From a virus (Duplodnaviria; Heunggongvirae; Uroviricota; Caudoviricetes), in the IMG/VR virus record IMGVR_UViG_2648501797_000004: a stretch of 18,074 nucleotides of DNA, one strand, 5' to 3'. The translations under genes were made by a program, and so were the position numbers. How positions within the stretch are numbered: position 1 is the first letter of the stretch; every line of letters starts with the position of its first letter. This document shows, in pieces, positions 1,659-14,767 of this stretch. The notes below the pieces were generated by a model. It made no database searches. It had not been told where the DNA came from and saw only the letters and a list, made by a program, of their open reading frames with translations.

Positions 1659-4130
1659 TTAAGAATCAGCCTGACTCGGGATCAGTTTTTGCCAGATAAC
1701 TGAAACGTATTTTGCCTGGTAACGGGCGTCATCAAGTGCATTATGGCGCTCACCTTCGAATGGAATAGCCGTTCTGGCATCGAAGTCTATGGCTTTCCCC
1801 AGCTCAACGATTGTGCGTACATCGCGATCGTTGTAGTAACGCCACGGGCAGGGGATCCCCTGCCGTTCGTATGAACGGCGCAAAATCGTGTTGTCGAAGT
1901 TGGCTCCATTTCCCCAAACCTGAACAAAAAATTCACCGGAGTTTTCGTCGATAAATTCCCGCAATTGTAACAGTGCATCATCTAACGGGATTTCATCGGT
2001 CATAATGGCAGATTGCGCTTCGCGTGATTGCTTAAGCCACCATTTAATGGTGTCCCGATCAATGACTCCGCCAGCAGTTTCCAGATCGATAGTCTTACTA
2101 AATTCCGGTCCCATATCTCCGGTTTGCGGATCGAAAAATATTGCACCTATTGAGATGATCGGGGCATCAGGATTTTTTCCCATGGTTTCAAGGTCGATCA
2201 TTAGATGGTCACACGTCCTGCTGGTGGATGTGATTTCGTGATGACCGTTCACCTTAATTGGGTGATCTGCCGTCTCGCCAGTTTCATTATCGCTATTGTG
2301 ATGCTGATTGCCGCCAGTGTTCTCCTTGTGTGGATGTTCAGCGCCTTCCATTTCCTCCGGATCATCTTCCTGAACTTCAACCTGATACTCTTCATCGAAT
2401 GTTTCTTGGTATGTTGCGTCGCCCATCACCGCGCCACAATCAGGGCAGTTGCCGCCGCCGGTCTGACCGCAGGCGGTGCAGGCTTTTTCCACTTCCTGTT
2501 GCGCCACTGGTTCAGGCTGTTTCGTTTCTGGCTCGTTTTGTAACGCATTTGGACTGTTTTGTTCCGCTTTTTGGTAGTTCCGTTCCGATTCATGCTGGTT
2601 CTGGTTCACAGAATCGCGGGTCTGGATCCCCTTAACCCATTTCGGATCATTCGGGTCACTAATCCCTTCAACAAATTCACCACGTGATGCAGCAAGCAAC
2701 TTATCGGCGTCAGGCTGGCTGATATTGGCTGCCTGCATAATTTTGTTTACTTCGTCAGCGGTAACTTTTATCGGCTCTGGTTGTTCTGAATCTTCAGCGG
2801 TATCTACATTTTGCGGTAAGCCCGTGTATGTGCCATTTTTTCGGGCAAAATATTCTTCTTTTGTGATTTCAGTGGCGCCAGCAGCCAGTGCCTTATCCAG
2901 ACCAGAAAGTTTGTTTGCGCGACCGTATTTTTCTCCGTCCTTATCTGCGAAGAGGAAATAGAACGGCCCCTCACGCTCTACAGATGGTTCAGCTTCCGGC
3001 GCGGTTTCATTTTTTGGGATATCAGATACCTCAGTTTCCACTGCATCAGTTTGTGTTTCTGATGACTGGAGAACATCAACAGTGCCCAGGTCTGTTTCTT
3101 CATTCTCAAACACGCCCTTTGTCGTCAGGTATTCGCAGATATATTTGTTCAGTGCTACGGGATCTTTGTGAATGTCGATCGGACGCTCACGGACAAGGCC
3201 AAAAATAGTTTGGCGGTCGTAGCGAAGGGCATCAGGCTGTTTGCGCATTGATGCCGAGATACGCTTCCAGTCTTCGCGGTCGTTGTCGATAACTTCTTTT
3301 TTTGCCCAGCGATGGATGCTGCCGTCAATGTTTCCGGCATCCACATCACCAGGCCAGAGAGCGTAGGCCAGTTCGTCATCCAGTGTTTTCCATGTCTGCT
3401 TGTATTCGCGATGAATGGCAGCAATGACCGGGCTGATTTTTCCTGTTGAATTTTCAGTGTACTGTTGATTGGCTCTGGCGCGGGCGAGATCAACAACAGA
3501 CGTGTATTTTCCGGTTTCCTTGCGTTCACCTTCGCGACGTTTTTTCCAGATGCGCATCTCTGCCTGAATTTCGGGCCATTTAGCACCAGGAATACATTTA
3601 TGCTTAACCCACCCAATGGCGTGCAACTTAAGCTCCGGATACATGGCGTTAACTTCTGGCATTTTCATCAACGCTTCAACGATATGTCCGTCGAATGTTG
3701 CCATGTCTTCCTGCAACAATTCCTGTGCGCTAATAACCATATCAACGGTGATGTTTTCACATGTGTCGAACTTAACCATGACAGCGTTCTGTACTTCAGG
3801 GGCCAGCTTGTCAAAAGTGACGTTCATCGGATCGGATTCAGTCTCAACCGGGACAAAAGAAGCAGACTCCTCATCCCAGCGGTTTTCCTGCATATATTCA
3901 GCATCCCATGAATCGAGGGCAGGGCGGGGTATGCCAGGTTTATCCTCGCAGACAATAAATTTATAAGCGCAGTCCTGAGCAGCCGGATAATGTTCCAGGA
4001 ACTGCCAGTGAAATTTTGCTCGAGCACGGCGTTCGTCGCCAGCTTCAATGGCTGTGGCTACAGCCACAGCGCCTTCTTCCCTTGTTGCCAGTTCGTCAGG
4101 AATAGCGGCGCAAATAAAGACTTTACTCAT
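1659..4130 (-). CDS. Large modular accessory protein with C-terminal DnaQ-like DEDDh 3'-5' exonuclease domain (domain about nt 1662..2216); N-terminal ~300 aa of unknown function, acidic low-complexity linker, CxxC...CxxC zinc ribbon
   Basis: 823-aa ORF with an SD (GAGG) before the ATG at 4130. The C-terminal ~185 aa carry Exo I (MIDLETMG), Exo II (WGNGANFD) and Exo III (H-NALD-D) motifs. A CTACGQTGGGNCPDCG zinc-ribbon motif lies mid-protein, followed by a long D/E/Q-rich region. Confidence 0.75.
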   Translation of the reverse strand: MSKVFICAAIPDELATREEGAVAVATAIEAGDERRARAKFHWQFLEHYPAAQDCAYKFIVCEDKPGIPRPALDSWDAEYMQENRWDEESASFVPVETESDPMNVTFDKLAPEVQNAVMVKFDTCENITVDMVISAQELLQEDMATFDGHIVEALMKMPEVNAMYPELKLHAIGWVKHKCIPGAKWPEIQAEMRIWKKRREGERKETGKYTSVVDLARARANQQYTENSTGKISPVIAAIHREYKQTWKTLDDELAYALWPGDVDAGNIDGSIHRWAKKEVIDNDREDWKRISASMRKQPDALRYDRQTIFGLVRERPIDIHKDPVALNKYICEYLTTKGVFENEETDLGTVDVLQSSETQTDAVETEVSDIPKNETAPEAEPSVEREGPFYFLFADKDGEKYGRANKLSGLDKALAAGATEITKEEYFARKNGTYTGLPQNVDTAEDSEQPEPIKVTADEVNKIMQAANISQPDADKLLAASRGEFVEGISDPNDPKWVKGIQTRDSVNQNQHESERNYQKAEQNSPNALQNEPETKQPEPVAQQEVEKACTACGQTGGGNCPDCGAVMGDATYQETFDEEYQVEVQEDDPEEMEGAEHPHKENTGGNQHHNSDNETGETADHPIKVNGHHEITSTSRTCDHLMIDLETMGKNPDAPIISIGAIFFDPQTGDMGPEFSKTIDLETAGGVIDRDTIKWWLKQSREAQSAIMTDEIPLDDALLQLREFIDENSGEFFVQVWGNGANFDNTILRRSYERQGIPCPWRYYNDRDVRTIVELGKAIDFDARTAIPFEGERHNALDDARYQAKYVSVIWQKLIPSQADS

Positions 4131-4743: not shown

Positions 4744-5202
4744 GTGTACCGCGAAAGCGACATCGTACCGGGAGAGCAGACCGCCACCAGCATATTGAAA
4801 CAACGCACAAAAAATCTTGCACCGTTGCCTTACGCCCACCAGCAACAAAAATCACCACAGGAAAAGACGGTGGTAAGCATCACCGTTGATCCAGAGTCTC
4901 CGGAATCTTTCATGAAGCTGCCTAAACGTCGCCGCTGGGTTAAGGAGAAATACACACGTTGGGTTAAGACACAGCCGTGTGCTTGCTGCGGTATGCCAGC
5001 CGACGATCCGCATCATCTGATTGGTCACGGGCAGGGCGGAATGGGAACAAAAGCACATGATCTCTTTGTGTTGCCTTTGTGCAGAAAGCATCACAACGAG
5101 CTGCATACGGATACAGTGGCATTTGAAGATAAGTATGGCTCCCAACTGGAGCTGATATTTCGTTTTATCGATCGCGCGCTGGCAATTGGCGTACTGGCGT
5201 AA
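4744..5202 (+). CDS. Cys/His-rich zinc-binding nuclease-like protein (YbcO/DUF1364- or DUF968-like fold); probable functional start at the ATG at 4912 (96 aa); may be the C-terminal remnant of a longer ydfU-like gene
   Basis: Motif C-x-C-C-G...HHLIGHG...GMGTKAHD...C-x-x-HH-x-E-L-H resembles small phage nin-region nucleases; lies directly upstream of Q. The ORF track start at 4744 is a GTG. Confidence 0.5.
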   Translation: MYRESDIVPGEQTATSILKQRTKNLAPLPYAHQQQKSPQEKTVVSITVDPESPESFMKLPKRRRWVKEKYTRWVKTQPCACCGMPADDPHHLIGHGQGGMGTKAHDLFVLPLCRKHHNELHTDTVAFEDKYGSQLELIFRFIDRALAIGVLA

Positions 5203-5215
5203 GTGGAGAACGAGC

Positions 5216-5968
5216 ATGAACCTTGAAGCCTTACCAAAATATTACTCCCCAAAATCTCCAAAATTGAGCGATGACGCTCCAGCGACAGGCACCGGTTGTT
5301 TAACAATTACGGATGTAATGGCAGCGCAGGGGATGGTGCAGTCGAAAGCACCACTTGGGTTGGCCTTATTTCTGGCAAAAGTTGGTGTTCAGGACCCTCA
5401 GTTTGCGATTGAAGGCCTGCTAAATTACGCGATGGCACTGGATAACCCGACATTGAACAAATTGAGTGAAGAAATCCGGTTACAGATTATTCCTTACCTC
5501 GTGAGTTTTGCCTTTGCTGATTACTCCAGGTCTGCGGCAAGTAAGGCTCGCTGTGAGCATTGTTCAGGTACGGGATTTTATAATGTATTGCGCGAAGTGG
5601 TGAAACACTACAGACGCGGGGAATCTGTAATCAAGGAAGAATGGGTGAAGGAACTATGTCAGCATTGCCATGGTAAGGGCGAAGCCAGCACAGCGTGCAG
5701 AGGGTGTAAGGGTAAAGGGATTGTTCTGGATGAAAAAAGAACCCGGTTTCATGGCGTACCGGTATATAAGATTTGTGGGCGTTGTAATGGAAACCGGTTT
5801 AGTCGTTTACCGACCACGCTGGCACGACGTCATGTCCAGAAGCTGGTACCAGACCTGACCGATTATCAGTGGTATAAGGGGTATGCGGACGTCATTGGTA
5901 AACTGGTAACAAAGTGCTGGCAGGAAGAAGCATACGCGGAAGCGCAATTGAGGAAGGTGACGAGATAA
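5216..5968 (+). CDS. quuQ: Late-gene antitermination protein Q (phage 21/82-type)
   Basis: 250-aa product from an ATG with a GGAGAA SD; Cys-rich zinc-finger region (CEHCSGTG...CQHCHGKG...CRGCKGKG); position immediately upstream of a strong promoter plus terminator and the lysis genes. Confidence 0.8.
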   Translation: MNLEALPKYYSPKSPKLSDDAPATGTGCLTITDVMAAQGMVQSKAPLGLALFLAKVGVQDPQFAIEGLLNYAMALDNPTLNKLSEEIRLQIIPYLVSFAFADYSRSAASKARCEHCSGTGFYNVLREVVKHYRRGESVIKEEWVKELCQHCHGKGEASTACRGCKGKGIVLDEKRTRFHGVPVYKICGRCNGNRFSRLPTTLARRHVQKLVPDLTDYQWYKGYADVIGKLVTKCWQEEAYAEAQLRKVTR

Positions 5969-5999
5969 ATGATTTTTGCTGAAGATGGCGACATGATGT

Positions 6000-6028
6000 T
6001 TGCATTTTTCAAAAAATATGGATAAAAT
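6000..6028 (+). promoter_or_regulatory. Near-consensus sigma70 promoter, candidate late promoter PR' (-35 TTGCAT 6000..6005, 17-bp spacer, -10 TAAAAT 6023..6028)
   Basis: Hexamers and spacing read directly; located about 30 bp downstream of the Q stop and about 45 bp upstream of an intrinsic terminator, as expected for a Q-modified late promoter. Confidence 0.55.
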
Positions 6029-6073
6029 TTTTTCAACGATGGGCTTTGTATACCCGACGTTAAGAAAAAGTAG

Positions 6074-6105
6074 AAAACCCGCTGATGAGCGGGTTTTGTG
6101 CTTTA
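6074..6105 (+). terminator. Intrinsic terminator (tR'-like); also usable on the minus strand
   Basis: 9-bp stem AAAACCCGC / GCGGGTTTT with loop TGATGA, followed by a T-rich tract on the plus strand; the minus strand also has a U-rich tract after the hairpin. Confidence 0.6.
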
Positions 6106-6389
6106 AATGGGGCAATGGTAATGTTGAATCTCATCCCGGGACTCATGTCTGTTAACTTATTATTTAGCTGGTGACTTGGTTATTTGCCTGATGTTTAAAA
6201 TGTTTTCTTCCAGTACAATGTCCCTAAACACAATGAGTCTGCTTATTATATTATTAGCAGAGCTATTACGGCCAAAGTACAGCATAAGCTTTTAAAGCCA
6301 ATCAACCAGTCATCAAGACAGACGGGGTTATTCATAAAAACTCTCCATGTGTGATCCGATGGGGCCTGAAATTAAAGCTTTAATATAGC

Positions 6390-6602
6390 TCATGAAAGGT
6401 AAACATTGGCAGCTGAAGGGCCACGCAGACCATTTATCCGGCAAAATTCCACGCGTAATCCGGTGGTAATTTCTTCTGCATCGCGGAGATTGAGCGCTGA
6501 AACATGAAGCTGGACATCGATACGACCATCGGATGGGGTGATAAGACCCTTGCCGCTTTTGCCGTCAAAGGTTTTGACAATTCCTGTCATTTTACGGGAC
6601 AA
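6390..6602 (-). CDS. cspF: Cold-shock-domain protein, CspF/CspH subfamily
   Basis: 70-aa CspA-family ORF ([12 protein letters not shown]...[10 protein letters not shown]); apparent TTG start with an AAGGAA SD; Qin-like context next to cspB and Q. Confidence 0.8.
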
Positions 6603-6902
6603 AAAAATTCCTTAATACTGATAACTTGGCGCACTATACACACGTTCCTGAAGAAAGCTATAGTTTTTTGATGGGGTTGAAGACGGCTGGATGTCTAAAA
6701 TAAACATTGCTTCATATGTTCAACTATGCGTTAATGATTGCGTCGGTTTGAAGAACAGACGATATACGAAGTAGTTTACTAAAGCAGTTCTCATTTCAGG
6801 TGTTATTCACTTATTCCTTCTTTGAGTCTCTCCAATTAAGTACGAAGTCGTTTCTGTTATGCAAACCATTTATGCCGAAAGGCTCAAGTTAAGGAATGTA
6901 GA

Positions 6903-7118
6903 ATGTCAAATAAAATGACTGGTTTAGTAAAATGGTTTAACGCTGATAAAGGTTTCGGCTTTATTTCTCCTGTTGATGGTAGTAAAGATGTGTTTGTGCA
7001 TTTTTCTGCGATTCAGAATGATAATTATCGAACCTTATTTGAAGGTCAAAAGGTTACCTTCTCTATAGAGAGTGGTGCTAAAGGTCCTGCAGCAGCAAAT
7101 GTCATCATTACTGATTAA
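6903..7118 (+). CDS. cspB: Cold-shock protein CspB
   Basis: 71-aa CspA-family ORF with RNP1/RNP2-like motifs (KGFGFI, VFVHF); long AT-rich leader upstream. Confidence 0.85.
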
Positions 7119-7399
7119 AATTCATCGCTCGTCTGTATACGATAACGAAGAAGGCTGATGCCTGAGTAGAGATACGGACAGAGTAGTGAATATTGGATCT
7201 CTTTAATAAAAAGTAAGGAGGTCCAATACATGAAACAATGGCTAGCATATTTGGCAAAATCTTAATCAGGAAAAGTATGCTAACCATTGTGGTGAAGTGC
7301 AGGTTTGCTGCATGAATAGTTTTACAGCAGAAGCTAACTGCTGGCATGGCAAAACAAAGTGCGTAAGTGGATGACTCCCACAAAAAGCACCACAATCTC

Positions 7400-7426
7400 A
7401 AACCCGCTCAGGCGGGTTTTTTATTA
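7400..7426 (+). terminator. Intrinsic terminator about 290 nt downstream of cspB
   Basis: 8-bp stem AAACCCGC / GCGGGTTT with loop TCAG followed by TTTTATTAT; the stem sequence is nearly identical to the terminator at 6074..6105. Confidence 0.6.
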
Positions 7427-7481
7427 TCTGCTTTAAATATATTATTAAAATATAAAAAATACTTGTTACTAATAAAATCAA

Positions 7482-7652
7482 TCAGGCTACAGCTTTAAGA
7501 TTTGTCTGGAATACTTTGTTGCAATGAGGGCAGATCAAAAGGGCACCTTTTTGTACTCTTGAAAAACTGTGTTCTGACTCTTGGGTGCAGTTTGGGCAGG
7601 AACATTTAACGAGATAATTACGGCGTGATTTTGAGTTTTTACGTTCTGACAT
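7482..7652 (-). CDS. ynfU: Small zinc-ribbon protein (56 aa; CPNC...CPHC), YnfU-like
   Basis: ATG preceded by an AGGAAAA SD; two CxxC pairs; basic N-terminus. The gene symbol is tentative, from recall of Qin small proteins. Confidence 0.5.
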   Translation of the reverse strand: MSERKNSKSRRNYLVKCSCPNCTQESEHSFSRVQKGALLICPHCNKVFQTNLKAVA

Positions 7653-7871
7653 AGGCTTTTCCTGTATAAATGGCCGTATACAGTACACTAAATATGAAAA
7701 CATTTCTCGTATTATTATTTTATATATGACTTTCTTTCAAAATAATTACCCACATTTTTAATGTGTATGTTTTTTTAGCGCCGTTGAGAACAACGTGTGC
7801 TGTCAAAACTACCCCGTAGACTCCGATCTTTTCAAACATATTGCACCATCCGTGTACATCGGGGTGAGGAT

Positions 7872-8087
7872 ATGAAATCAATGGATAAGTTAACAACAGG
7901 TGTTGCCTATGGCACATCGGCGGGTAATGCTGGTTTCTGGGCATTGCAGTTACTCGATAAAGTAACTCCGTCACAGTGGGCTGCAATCGGTGTGCTGGGT
8001 AGCCTGGTTTTTGGCCTGCTGACGTATCTGACAAATCTTTATTTCAAGATTAAAGAAGACAGGCGTAAGGCTGCGAGAGGAGAGTAA
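7872..8087 (+). CDS. essQ: Pinholin, phage 21 S-type with dual start (MKSMDK...)
   Basis: GAGGA SD; dual-start motif M-K-S-M; two TM segments; C-terminus [15 protein letters not shown] like S21. The ORF track begins earlier, at 7797. Confidence 0.85.
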
Positions 8088-9489: not shown

Positions 9490-9852
9490 ATTAATATTAA
9501 ATCGGATTATTTTTAGCGCTGAATGTGAAATTTAAATAAAAAGGACTCTTCCATGAGTCAAAATCCTTGAAATCTTAAGGGTAAGATAAAAGGTCATTAG
9601 ACAGAATGACACGTTTTATTAATAAATAAAGCTATTGTTTCATTCGTGTGTTTTTCTTTACAAAAGTAATCCTTGCTATGGTTGGTTAATCATGCGTTAA
9701 TGGTGTTCTGGTTTGTTACAAAATTATCTGAAGCAGTCATTGTTATAATTTTATTATTTGTACCTCTTGAGATTTCCTTGTTGGTTTTTCTCTCTGATAT
9801 TTTTTTTCGGACCATTCTGCCCAAGGGCTAACTTCTTCAAAAGGTAATAATA

Positions 9853-10065
9853 ATGTCTAACAAAATGACTGGTTTAGTGAAATGGTTTAACCCTGAAAAA
9901 GGTTTTGGTTTCATCACGCCGAAAGATGGTAGCAAAGATGTGTTTGTGCATTTCTCAGCTATTCAGAGCAACGATTTCAAAACGTTAACTGAGAATCAGG
10001 AAGTCGAATTTGGTATTGAGAACGGACCTAAAGGCCCTGCAGCTGTTCATGTAGTGGCACTTTGA
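9853..10065 (+). CDS. cspI: Cold-shock protein CspI
   Basis: 70-aa CspA-family ORF ([34 protein letters not shown]...); long AT-rich leader of about 360 bp upstream. Confidence 0.85.
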
Positions 10066-10267
10066 GGTAGAAAATATTACAAACCATATTCACTTTAGAT
10101 GCCCGTGTTGCCATGGTTCTCAGTATAGAACATCATCTTTTGATGTTTCTGACAGAAATCCTTTCGGGGCAAAATGTATCTTTTGTAAATCAATGATGAT
10201 TACATTTGATAATATTTCACAATACTTAAATGTTAGCCATCTGTCGTTAGATTTAAGAAAGTGAAAA

Positions 10268-14192: not shown

Positions 14193-14767
14193 TGGCATTC
14201 AGAATGAGTGAACAACCACGGACCATAAAAATTTATAATCTGCTGGCCGGAACTAATGAATTTATTGGTGAAGGTGATGCATATATTCCGCCTCATACAG
14301 GTCTGCCAGCAAACAGTACCGATATTGCACCGCCAGATATTCCGGCAGGCTTCGTGGCTGTTTTCAACAGTGATGAGTCATCGTGGCATCTCGTTGAAGA
14401 TCATCGGGGTAAAACGGTTTATGACGTGGCTTCCGGCGACGCGTTATTTATTTCTGAACTCGGTCCGTTACCGGAAAATGTTACCTGGTTATCGCCGGAA
14501 GGAGAGTTTCAGAAGTGGAACGGCACAGCCTGGGTGAAGGATACGGAAGCAGAAAAACTGTTCCGGATCCGGGAGGCGGAAGAAATAAAAAACAACCTGA
14601 TGCAGGTAGCCAGTGAGCATATTGCGCCGCTTCAGGATGCTGCAGATCTGGAAATTGCAACGGAGGAAGAAATCTCGTTGCTGGAAGCATGGAAAAAGTA
14701 TCGGGTATTGCTGAACCGTGTTGATACGTCAACTTCACAGGATATTGAATGGCCAGCACTGCCGTAG
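14192..14767 (+). CDS. tfaQ: Tail fibre assembly protein (Tfa)
   Basis: 191-aa ORF whose start overlaps the stop of the fibre fragment (TAATG); Tfa-like sequence and position after stf. Confidence 0.8.

Follow-up and report, generated by a model that had tools for sequence, protein, structure and literature searches.

Two look-alike hairpins around a cold-shock gene block of a Qin-type prophage are probably terminators of separate origin

The late-control region and its two hairpins

Two similar hairpins bracket the cold-shock genes cspF and cspB between the Q antiterminator gene and the lysis genes of a prophage, and we asked where each of them comes from. The window, i.e., the whole stretch of DNA analyzed (IMG/VR record IMGVR_UViG_2648501797_000004), comprises 18,074 bases, and all positions given are window coordinates. 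Over the segment 5186-8100, it matches Escherichia phage PhiR42_1 and many E. coli chromosomes with 100% identity; at least 80% of this segment is present in 1,605 of 5,426 complete E. coli genomes. The first 409 bases of a test query were 100% identical to MG1655, all six 61-nt strings quoted from the K-12 Term-seq tables match the window exactly, and the window equals K-12 Qin at every stretch compared. RefSeq gives the gene order as ydfU, ydfT (Q), a small open reading frame (ORF), cspF, cspB, ynfU, essD (holin), ydfR, rrrQ, rzpQ, and cspI. The locus is the late-control region of a Qin-type lambdoid prophage, a very common prophage of the K-12 type. The features on which the comparison of the hairpins rests are as follows.

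5216..5968, plus strand: Q antiterminator gene (quuQ/ydfT type, 250 aa), assigned from Pfam, PDB, and RefSeq (ydfT)
6000..6028, plus strand: predicted late promoter (PR' equivalent), with -35 TTGCAT at 6000-6005, a 17-nt spacer, and -10 TAAAAT at 6023-6028
6035..6043, plus strand: pause element AACGATGGG, a -10-like sigma70 pause sequence plus GGG, equal to lambda pR' +1 to +9
6074..6097, both strands possible: hairpin 1, with a 10-bp stem at 6074-6083/6088-6097 (AAAACCCGCT/AGCGGGTTTT) and the loop GATG
6099..6108, plus strand: first copy of TGCTTTAAAT; its TGC lies inside the conserved end of the Q module, TTTTGTGC, and the remainder begins lineage-specific DNA
7400..7428, both strands possible: hairpin 2, with an 8-bp stem at 7400-7407/7412-7419, the loop TCAG, and a T-rich tail, TTTTTTATTATC, running to 7428
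7429..7438, plus strand: second copy of TGCTTTAAAT, opening an AT-rich spacer that is unconserved in relatives

The initial annotation had described two near-identical terminators with a common stem and a common 10-mer downstream, and this resemblance is real: the pattern AAACCCGC-N(3-8)-GCGGGTTT is present at just two places in the window (6075-6096 and 7400-7419; none expected from 200 shuffles), and the exact 10-mer TGCTTTAAAT likewise has only two occurrences. Only the terminator boundaries had been drawn slightly loosely and are corrected in the list above. In the pairwise alignment that the annotation had proposed as a check, identity is confined to the halves of a generic stem, the first Ts, and the 10-mer, and the flanks are unrelated. 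The loops differ, and the stem is separated from the 10-mer by 1 nt at hairpin 1 (G) versus 9 nt at hairpin 2 (TTTATTATC). Each hairpin folds stably on either strand, with energies of -23.9 kcal/mol (plus strand) and -15.1 kcal/mol (minus strand) for hairpin 1 and -12.8 and -15.3 kcal/mol, respectively, for hairpin 2; a terminator scan called hairpin 2 canonical on the plus strand and hairpin 1 canonical on the minus strand. The GC stem of hairpin 1 is flanked by an A-tract and a T-tract, and from this sequence it is potentially bidirectional, serving the late promoter on the plus strand and the cspF-ynfS unit on the minus strand.

Affiliation of each hairpin

The Q protein belongs to the lambda family (PF03589, E=3.6e-54; lambda Q, PDB 7UBM, E=4.6e-36) and carries an inserted DnaJ-type zinc finger (PF00684). 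The -35 hexamer starts 31 bases past the Q stop codon; the promoter was read from the sequence, and a scan places a promoter-like site there too. The pause element begins six bases beyond the -10; in an alignment with lambda, the spacing is that of pR' and the TCAACGATGGG block is identical. The lambda sequence AACGAT (+1 to +6) with GGG behind it serves as the sigma70-dependent pause element required by Q (PMC4005639). Because promoter and pause element align with lambda pR', we infer a transcription start at 6035, from which hairpin 1 lies 40-63 nt downstream (+40 to +63). Q, promoter, leader, and hairpin 1 form a block conserved in SfV, Ayreon, mEp460, and Stx2c phages, the promoter with its pause element being conserved in five phages. 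The similarity ends within ~5 nt past hairpin 1 and its T-run (~6097-6104), and a terminator is annotated at this site in SfV and Ayreon. In the K-12 Term-seq atlas (Adams et al. 2021, PMC7815308, Supplementary file 1), a strong orphan 3' end is recorded at 1642356(-) under each of the three conditions. It corresponds to window position 6101 on the plus strand (...GCGGGUUUUGUGC), the flanking 61-mer being identical to the window, and falls inside the first TGCTTTAAAT, at ...UUUUGUGC. A start at 6035 and an end at 6101 would therefore give a 67-nt leader RNA (6035-6101) in uninduced cells. Hairpin 1 is the tR'-type intrinsic terminator of a lambda-family Q module, as the initial annotation had suspected, an assignment upheld by the Q family, the lambda-like promoter, the conservation with Q, and the 3' end at 6101; late-promoter transcripts are shown to stop at it in the uninduced K-12 lysogen.

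Rearrangement of this segment was seen in two other phages. HannyBb (locus L006, 1281-3110) and PhiR63_1 carry a tandem second copy of the segment that spans the 3' end of Q and the late promoter (window 5911-6051); the duplicates bracket 1.55 kb of extra minus-strand cargo, and a different tR'-like hairpin, AAGCCGC...GTGGTTTTTTTGTG, follows the first promoter copy. These phages show that duplication of the tR' region does occur at the Q-to-lysis junction, but not at hairpin 2.

Between hairpin 1 and the first lysis gene lie the following genes.

6246..6335, minus strand: ynfS, a small ORF of 29 aa downstream of cspF (PF23697 YnfS, E=4.7e-23; hypothetical protein in RefSeq)
6390..6602, minus strand: cspF, cold-shock domain protein (Pfam CSD; RefSeq)
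6742..7134, plus strand: core of the cspB transcription unit, with a cspA-type thermoregulator in the 5' untranslated region (5' UTR) and the cspB coding sequence at 6903-7118 (Pfam CSD)
7482..7652, minus strand: ynfU, encoding a 56-aa zinc-ribbon protein (PF23499, E=3.5e-31)
7872..8087, plus strand: holin gene (essD/essQ type), the first lysis gene (RefSeq annotation, ORF list)

GC content is 35-40% from ~6000 to ~7800 versus 47-51% in Q and the lysis genes, and homology to other lambdoid phages picks up again at ~7846-7868, at the holin gene. The order cspF(-)-cspB(+)-RNA element-ynfU(-), in which the RNA element is a conserved structure described below, recurs in Kluyvera, Kosakonia, Enterobacter, Phytobacter, phage PHB10, and several viral contigs; no lambda-type Q was detected in the fetched flanks of the recurrent blocks in these four genera and PHB10. 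The csp unit stands in unrelated surroundings: between hicAB and a polymerase gene in Cyrano, between an SOS-peptidase gene and umuC in PHB10, and in several enterobacterial genera. Conversely, SfV, mEp460, Ayreon, Stx2c, and SKA5 have Q, promoter, and terminator in common with the window, whereas the csp block is missing and other cargo takes its place; in relatives, what follows the same terminator is a methylase gene (SfV, mEp460, Ayreon) or small ORFs. In Stx phages, the stx genes occupy the Q-to-lysis site. The low-GC cargo at the Q-to-lysis junction is of the moron type, and its mobile unit goes beyond cspF-cspB, comprising cspF, cspB, the RNA element, and ynfU. The proposal of a csp moron between Q and the lysis genes therefore holds as far as the regulatory signals of its own and the low GC content go, but the block does not end at hairpin 2; it extends past it to ynfU, as far as ~7800. 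Literature searches for csp genes as morons returned nothing specific.

The cspA thermoregulator match in the cspB 5' UTR (Rfam RF01766) scores 158.8 bits (E=4.9e-42), and a K-12 Term-seq 3' end falls inside this 5' UTR at window 6823; together, the two imply that cspB has its own promoter. Rho-dependent attenuation has been reported for cspB (PMC7815308). A common deletion variant of the block, represented by locus L005, phage Tritos, and ~17 IMG/VR loci, has lost 6142-6399, including ynfS and the cspF stop codon; judging from its sequence, this deletion is expected to lengthen the cspF reading frame so that it reaches toward or into hairpin 1. A second cold-shock cassette, cspI, lies at 9706-10111 (plus strand), just past the Rz gene, with a cspA-type thermoregulator of its own (110.6 bits) and in another low-GC tract (28-39% GC from ~9450); no AAACCCGC-type hairpin is present there.

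Hairpin 2 has relatives outside the Q module. Phage Cyrano (108 kb), a non-lambdoid phage, matches window 6725-7426 at 71.6%, covering the cspB promoter, 5' UTR, cspB, 3' region, and a hairpin (AAACCCGCC-AACA-GGCGGGTTT plus a T-rich tail), and the similarity stops just before the position of TGCTTTAAAT; there, the unit sits between hicAB and a convergent DNA polymerase gene. In a Superficieibacter prophage (L286), a Q gene of another family (DUF1133/PF06530) is followed by a CCCGC/GCGGG hairpin with a T-run and then by cspF(-), cspB(+), the same 3' element, a hairpin (AACCCGCC-AAAGT-GCGGGTT with a T-rich tail), ynfU(-), and a holin gene; TGCTTTAAAT is absent from both hairpins of L286. Since its orthologs follow cspB in both Cyrano and Superficieibacter, hairpin 2 has an ancestry of its own that is linked to cspB. 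A search of the phage collection for the surroundings of hairpin 2 without cspB found the region always together with cspB. By its position and sequence, hairpin 2 is a predicted intrinsic terminator between the convergent cspB (plus strand) and ynfU (minus strand), and on the minus strand a weak Term-seq 3' end (window 7397) corresponds to RNA in the ynfU direction. The suggestion that hairpin 2 arose by duplication of tR' is accordingly not borne out, given the cspB-linked orthologs in Cyrano and Superficieibacter, the unrelated flanks and loops, and the generic stem.

One locus appeared at first to offer a second mosaic junction at hairpin 2. In the viral contig L379 (~4795-5420), the normal downstream sequence is replaced from ...GCGGGTTTTTTATT onward; this candidate was rejected, as an IS200-family transposase gene directly follows the hairpin 2 T-run and the replacement is therefore most likely an insertion of that element.

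Duplication, insertion, and the shared 10-mer

We consider it probable that the hairpins are two different, independently derived intrinsic terminators, the phage's tR' and a cargo terminator, which stand around a composite cold-shock moron. The arrangement is standard prophage cargo rather than a duplicated tR'. The identical 8-bp stem is a commonplace A-tract/CCCGC terminator design, found by itself at no fewer than 120 loci on very diverse contigs in IMG/VR, and repeated 10-mers as such are trivial (312 in the window). The place of this 10-mer is less ordinary, as discussed below. Each of the two copies of TGCTTTAAAT is confined to the E. coli Qin-type lineage: copy 1 is missing from relatives that share the Q module, and copy 2 from those that have an ortholog of hairpin 2. 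The sharing of the 10-mer reflects either chance (about 0.5% a priori) or a small patch peculiar to this lineage, and it does not testify to duplication; neither coincidence, nor a short conversion patch, nor weak functional constraint supports a duplicated tR'.

The resemblance could also be explained by insertion of a cspF-cspB cassette into tR' with duplication of the terminator or, as a variant, by a staggered-cut insertion beside tR' that left TGCTTTAAAT as a 10-bp target-site duplication around a 1,320-bp insert (6109-7428). The 10-mers do lie exactly where external homology ends (~6097-6104 for the Q module and ~7426 for Cyrano), a short direct repeat does flank the insert in a position that is rare by chance, and in L044-type loci (see below) a hairpin and TGCTTTAAAT form a contiguous unit after a Q gene. 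However, a precise csp-less empty site would read Q-promoter-hairpin-TGCTTTAAAT-ATATTATT...-ynfU, and a chimeric query joining Q, promoter, and hairpin 1 to the DNA after hairpin 2 found no match with at least 80% coverage in any of the 5,426 E. coli genomes (0/5,426). The comparison with csp-less lambdoid phages likewise yielded none with the bare single terminator that the initial annotation had envisaged, same-Q relatives carrying other cargo after it. Because the orthologs of hairpin 2 are linked to cspB outside any Q context, hairpin 2 was not made by duplicating tR'; ynfU, which would lie just outside such an insert on its right, accompanies cspF-cspB in many genera, and the low GC content continues to ~7800. 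The ORF list contains no transposase or integrase within 6109-7428, the ends of the supposed insert (GGGGCAATGG... and ...TTTTATTATC) are not complementary, terminal inverted repeats were not apparent on reading by eye (no repeat-finding tool was run), and loops and spacing differ between the hairpin copies. We regard an insertion of either kind as highly improbable.

Short-patch gene conversion or recombination between two neighboring terminators, already alike, in the E. coli Qin lineage would make the similarity historical but secondary, with the stem homogenized and TGCTTTAAAT copied. Both motif copies being specific to this lineage fits such an event, as does a junction that is recombinationally active (the tandem duplicates of HannyBb and PhiR63_1), but the loops and the sequence between stem and motif differ, so a single continuous conversion tract is not seen, and no intermediate haplotypes were present among ~90 Qin-type viral contigs, which were themselves selected by the motif. 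It is an unlikely account, as is, somewhat more so, selection of the 10-mer as a functional element at each terminator independently, for instance as a distal U-rich tract (UGCUUU) that aids termination or as a binding site for a protein or RNA. At hairpin 1, UGCUUU pairs with an upstream AAAGUA, extending the stem to the -23.9 kcal/mol given above, and the in vivo 3' end maps within the motif; SKA5-type tR' hairpins are followed by TTTTTGCTTTT and L044-type hairpins by TTTTTGCTTTAAAT, distal U-rich tracts which UGCUUU resembles. Against a function stand the unequal distance from the stem (1 nt vs 9 nt), the location of the motif at hairpin 2 beyond the T-run, where termination would already have happened, and its absence from orthologous terminators.

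Several observations weigh against two independent terminators acting as proposed. Two separate origins do not account for the position of the 10-mer: TGCTTTAAAT occurs at most 30 nt downstream in 0 of 232 unrelated AAACCCGC hairpin orientations, and any shared 10-mer at that place is found in 0.4-0.7% of unrelated hairpin pairs of the same type, a figure to be read as a maximum, since some pairs may share undetected ancestry. The recurrence of a hairpin plus TGCTTTAAAT after an unrelated Q in L044-type loci hints that the motif may exceed noise. At hairpin 1, one condition of the Term-seq data has a further plus-strand 3' end (window 6269; 1642188-). It lies 168 nt past the hairpin, antisense to ynfS and after a small AT-rich hairpin, and suggests partial read-through of hairpin 1 or another start; the Term-seq data list no cspF-direction 3' end at hairpin 1. 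At hairpin 2, they list no cspB-direction 3' end under the 37°C conditions used, and the dominant end in that direction lies at 7231-7233 (1641224/1641226(-)), with scores of 0.6-2.5 million. Literature searches on QuuQ/ydfT function, including QuuQ-dependent antitermination at the late promoter, returned nothing specific. Termination of cspB at hairpin 2 and of cspF at hairpin 1 are predictions; a search of other Term-seq resources returned nothing for the locus.

The L044-type loci merit a description of their own. In L044 (10100-10142), L047, and L063, the hairpin CCGCCGCTGAGCGGG, as in the tR' of SfV, is directly followed by TTTTTGCTTTAAAT; these loci belong to a different lambdoid lineage, with a PF06323-family Q gene before the hairpin and holin and endolysin genes downstream, and they are the only other context in which a hairpin with TGCTTTAAAT was found. 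SKA5, sal3, and MIN14 were also considered as carriers of the motif after hairpin 1 and were rejected, having a different terminator hairpin.

Structured RNA, proposed transcription, and related systems

Two further elements lie between cspB and hairpin 2.

7192..7233, plus strand: 14-bp stem-loop sequestering TAAGGAGGT, from the predicted fold; the dominant 3' end at 7231-7233 follows it
7286..7396, plus strand: conserved structured RNA element, with a 9-bp closing helix (ATTGTGGTG/CACCACAAT) and three hairpins, directly upstream of hairpin 2

The sequestered TAAGGAGGT is a perfect Shine-Dalgarno sequence upstream of an 11-codon ORF (ATG at 7230, MKQWLAYLAKS; region 7192-7266), and the 3' end at 7231-7233, the strongest Term-seq end of the neighborhood, lies inside its start codon and 113 nt past the cspB stop codon. 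Homologs of the 7286-7396 element were found in Kluyvera, Kosakonia, Enterobacter, Phytobacter, Superficieibacter, and phages, with the invariant loops AAGCUAA and AAAGUGCGUAAG (in DNA, AAGCTAA and AAAGTGCGTAAG); a 15-mer scan of genome contigs gave mostly chance matches, and only the enterobacterial ones are real. RNAalifold returned 25 pairs, 9 of them compensatory. In the controls, 97.6% of cells were paired, 0 of 500 shuffles reached the observed values, and slid registers dropped to 23-66%; the G-U pairs work only on the plus strand. At both gathering and permissive thresholds, Rfam has no family for the element, the cspA thermoregulator being the only significant match in the region; we discarded weak hits to Trp_leader, isrK, and P9 (18-22 bits, E 0.2-0.5), which overlapped the terminator at hairpin 2. 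The fold is cloverleaf-like, but a tRNA or tmRNA origin was rejected, as ARAGORN found nothing. It is possible, and we put this forward tentatively, that the stretch of ~111 nt at 7286-7396 represents an undescribed structured RNA family that is co-inherited with prophage and plasmid-phage cspB across the Enterobacteriaceae and that, together with hairpin 2, could be a regulatory RNA derived from the 3' UTR or an element of the cold-shock cassette that acts in cis on stability or processing. If so, hairpin 2 would terminate the 7286-7396 RNA rather than the cspB mRNA, whose main 3' end is at 7231-7233.

Elsewhere in the window, a large ORF of 823 aa (1659-4130, minus strand) lies upstream of the ydfU-like gene and is missing from the annotated features of the K-12-like locus L007, where an IS1 element and rspA are upstream. 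Rfam also matched an IS009 RNA (RF02111, 219 bits) at 14535-14733 (plus strand).

How the region may be transcribed can be outlined from what was shown, namely its anatomy, its homologies to other loci, and the RNA 3' ends mapped in vivo at hairpin 1 (plus strand) and hairpin 2 (minus strand). RNA polymerase would start at the constitutive late promoter (~6035) and pause at AACGATGGG. Without Q, it stops at hairpin 1, giving the 67-nt RNA; with Q, it would read through hairpin 1 and continue antisense to ynfS and cspF, sense through cspB and hairpin 2, and antisense to ynfU into the holin and lysis genes, a Q-dependent read-through that we infer from the lambda paradigm. On the minus strand, hairpin 1 is the first terminator-like structure downstream of cspF-ynfS, and hairpin 2 would close the cspB unit (cspA-type 5' UTR, cspB, and structured 3' region) while facing the convergent ynfU. 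Late-promoter transcription would thereby be kept out of the cargo and the lysis genes until Q acts, and cold-induced csp transcription would be kept from running antisense into Q and from entering the lysis genes. Most likely, the terminators insulate phage and cargo from each other in both directions. The initial annotation had proposed that the cold-shock genes are insulated from late transcription unless Q is active; the stop of late transcripts at hairpin 1 in the uninduced lysogen agrees with the first half of this proposal, and the second half depends on the presumed read-through.

These results assign an orphan 3' end of the K-12 Term-seq atlas to the tR' of a Qin-type late operon with a 67-nt leader RNA. 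They also provide a clear case of phage and cargo sharing terminators at the Q-to-lysis junction, which is a hotspot for other cargo too, and they correct a tempting inference, in that look-alike terminators need not mean duplication. Potential for discovery lies only in the conserved structured RNA beside hairpin 2, which could bear on post-transcriptional control of prophage cold-shock genes.

The morons of lambdoid phages were reportedly described by Juhala et al. in 2000. The block resembles such morons (PMC3594210) in being extra DNA relative to related phages, with deviating GC content, a predicted promoter and terminator of its own, and the capacity for expression from a repressed prophage. 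It differs in being composite, with two divergent csp genes, ynfS, a structured RNA, and a convergent ynfU in place of one gene, and in that one of the flanking terminators is the phage's own tR' and no element of the cargo. Like the bidirectional terminators between convergent genes mapped by SEnd-seq (bioRxiv 10.1101/2022.10.23.513370), both hairpins stand between converging units, and hairpin 1 has an A-tract and a T-tract around its GC stem; unlike them, each hairpin here has 3' ends documented on one strand, and hairpin 2 is followed on the minus strand only by UUUGAG. In the PeSL cassettes of T4-type phages, repeated stem-loop terminators likewise flank nonessential genes in a plastic region, and there the stem-loops mediate modular shuffling (PMC2839356), whereas the Qin locus has two copies only, without an associated promoter and with separate hairpin ancestries, and no recombinant or deletion product was present in the 5,426 E. 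coli genomes. The closest likeness is to the late module of lambda (PR'-qut-6S RNA-tR'): a lambda-family Q, a promoter just downstream of it, an identical AACGATGGG in the same position, an intrinsic terminator that ends a short constitutive RNA, and lysis genes downstream. The Qin module departs from lambda in its leader (~67 nt vs the 194-nt 6S RNA), in its Q protein (250 aa with an extra DnaJ-type zinc finger vs 207 aa), and in the ~1.7 kb of cargo between terminator and holin, which Q, by analogy with lambda, would have RNA polymerase traverse on its way to the lysis genes.

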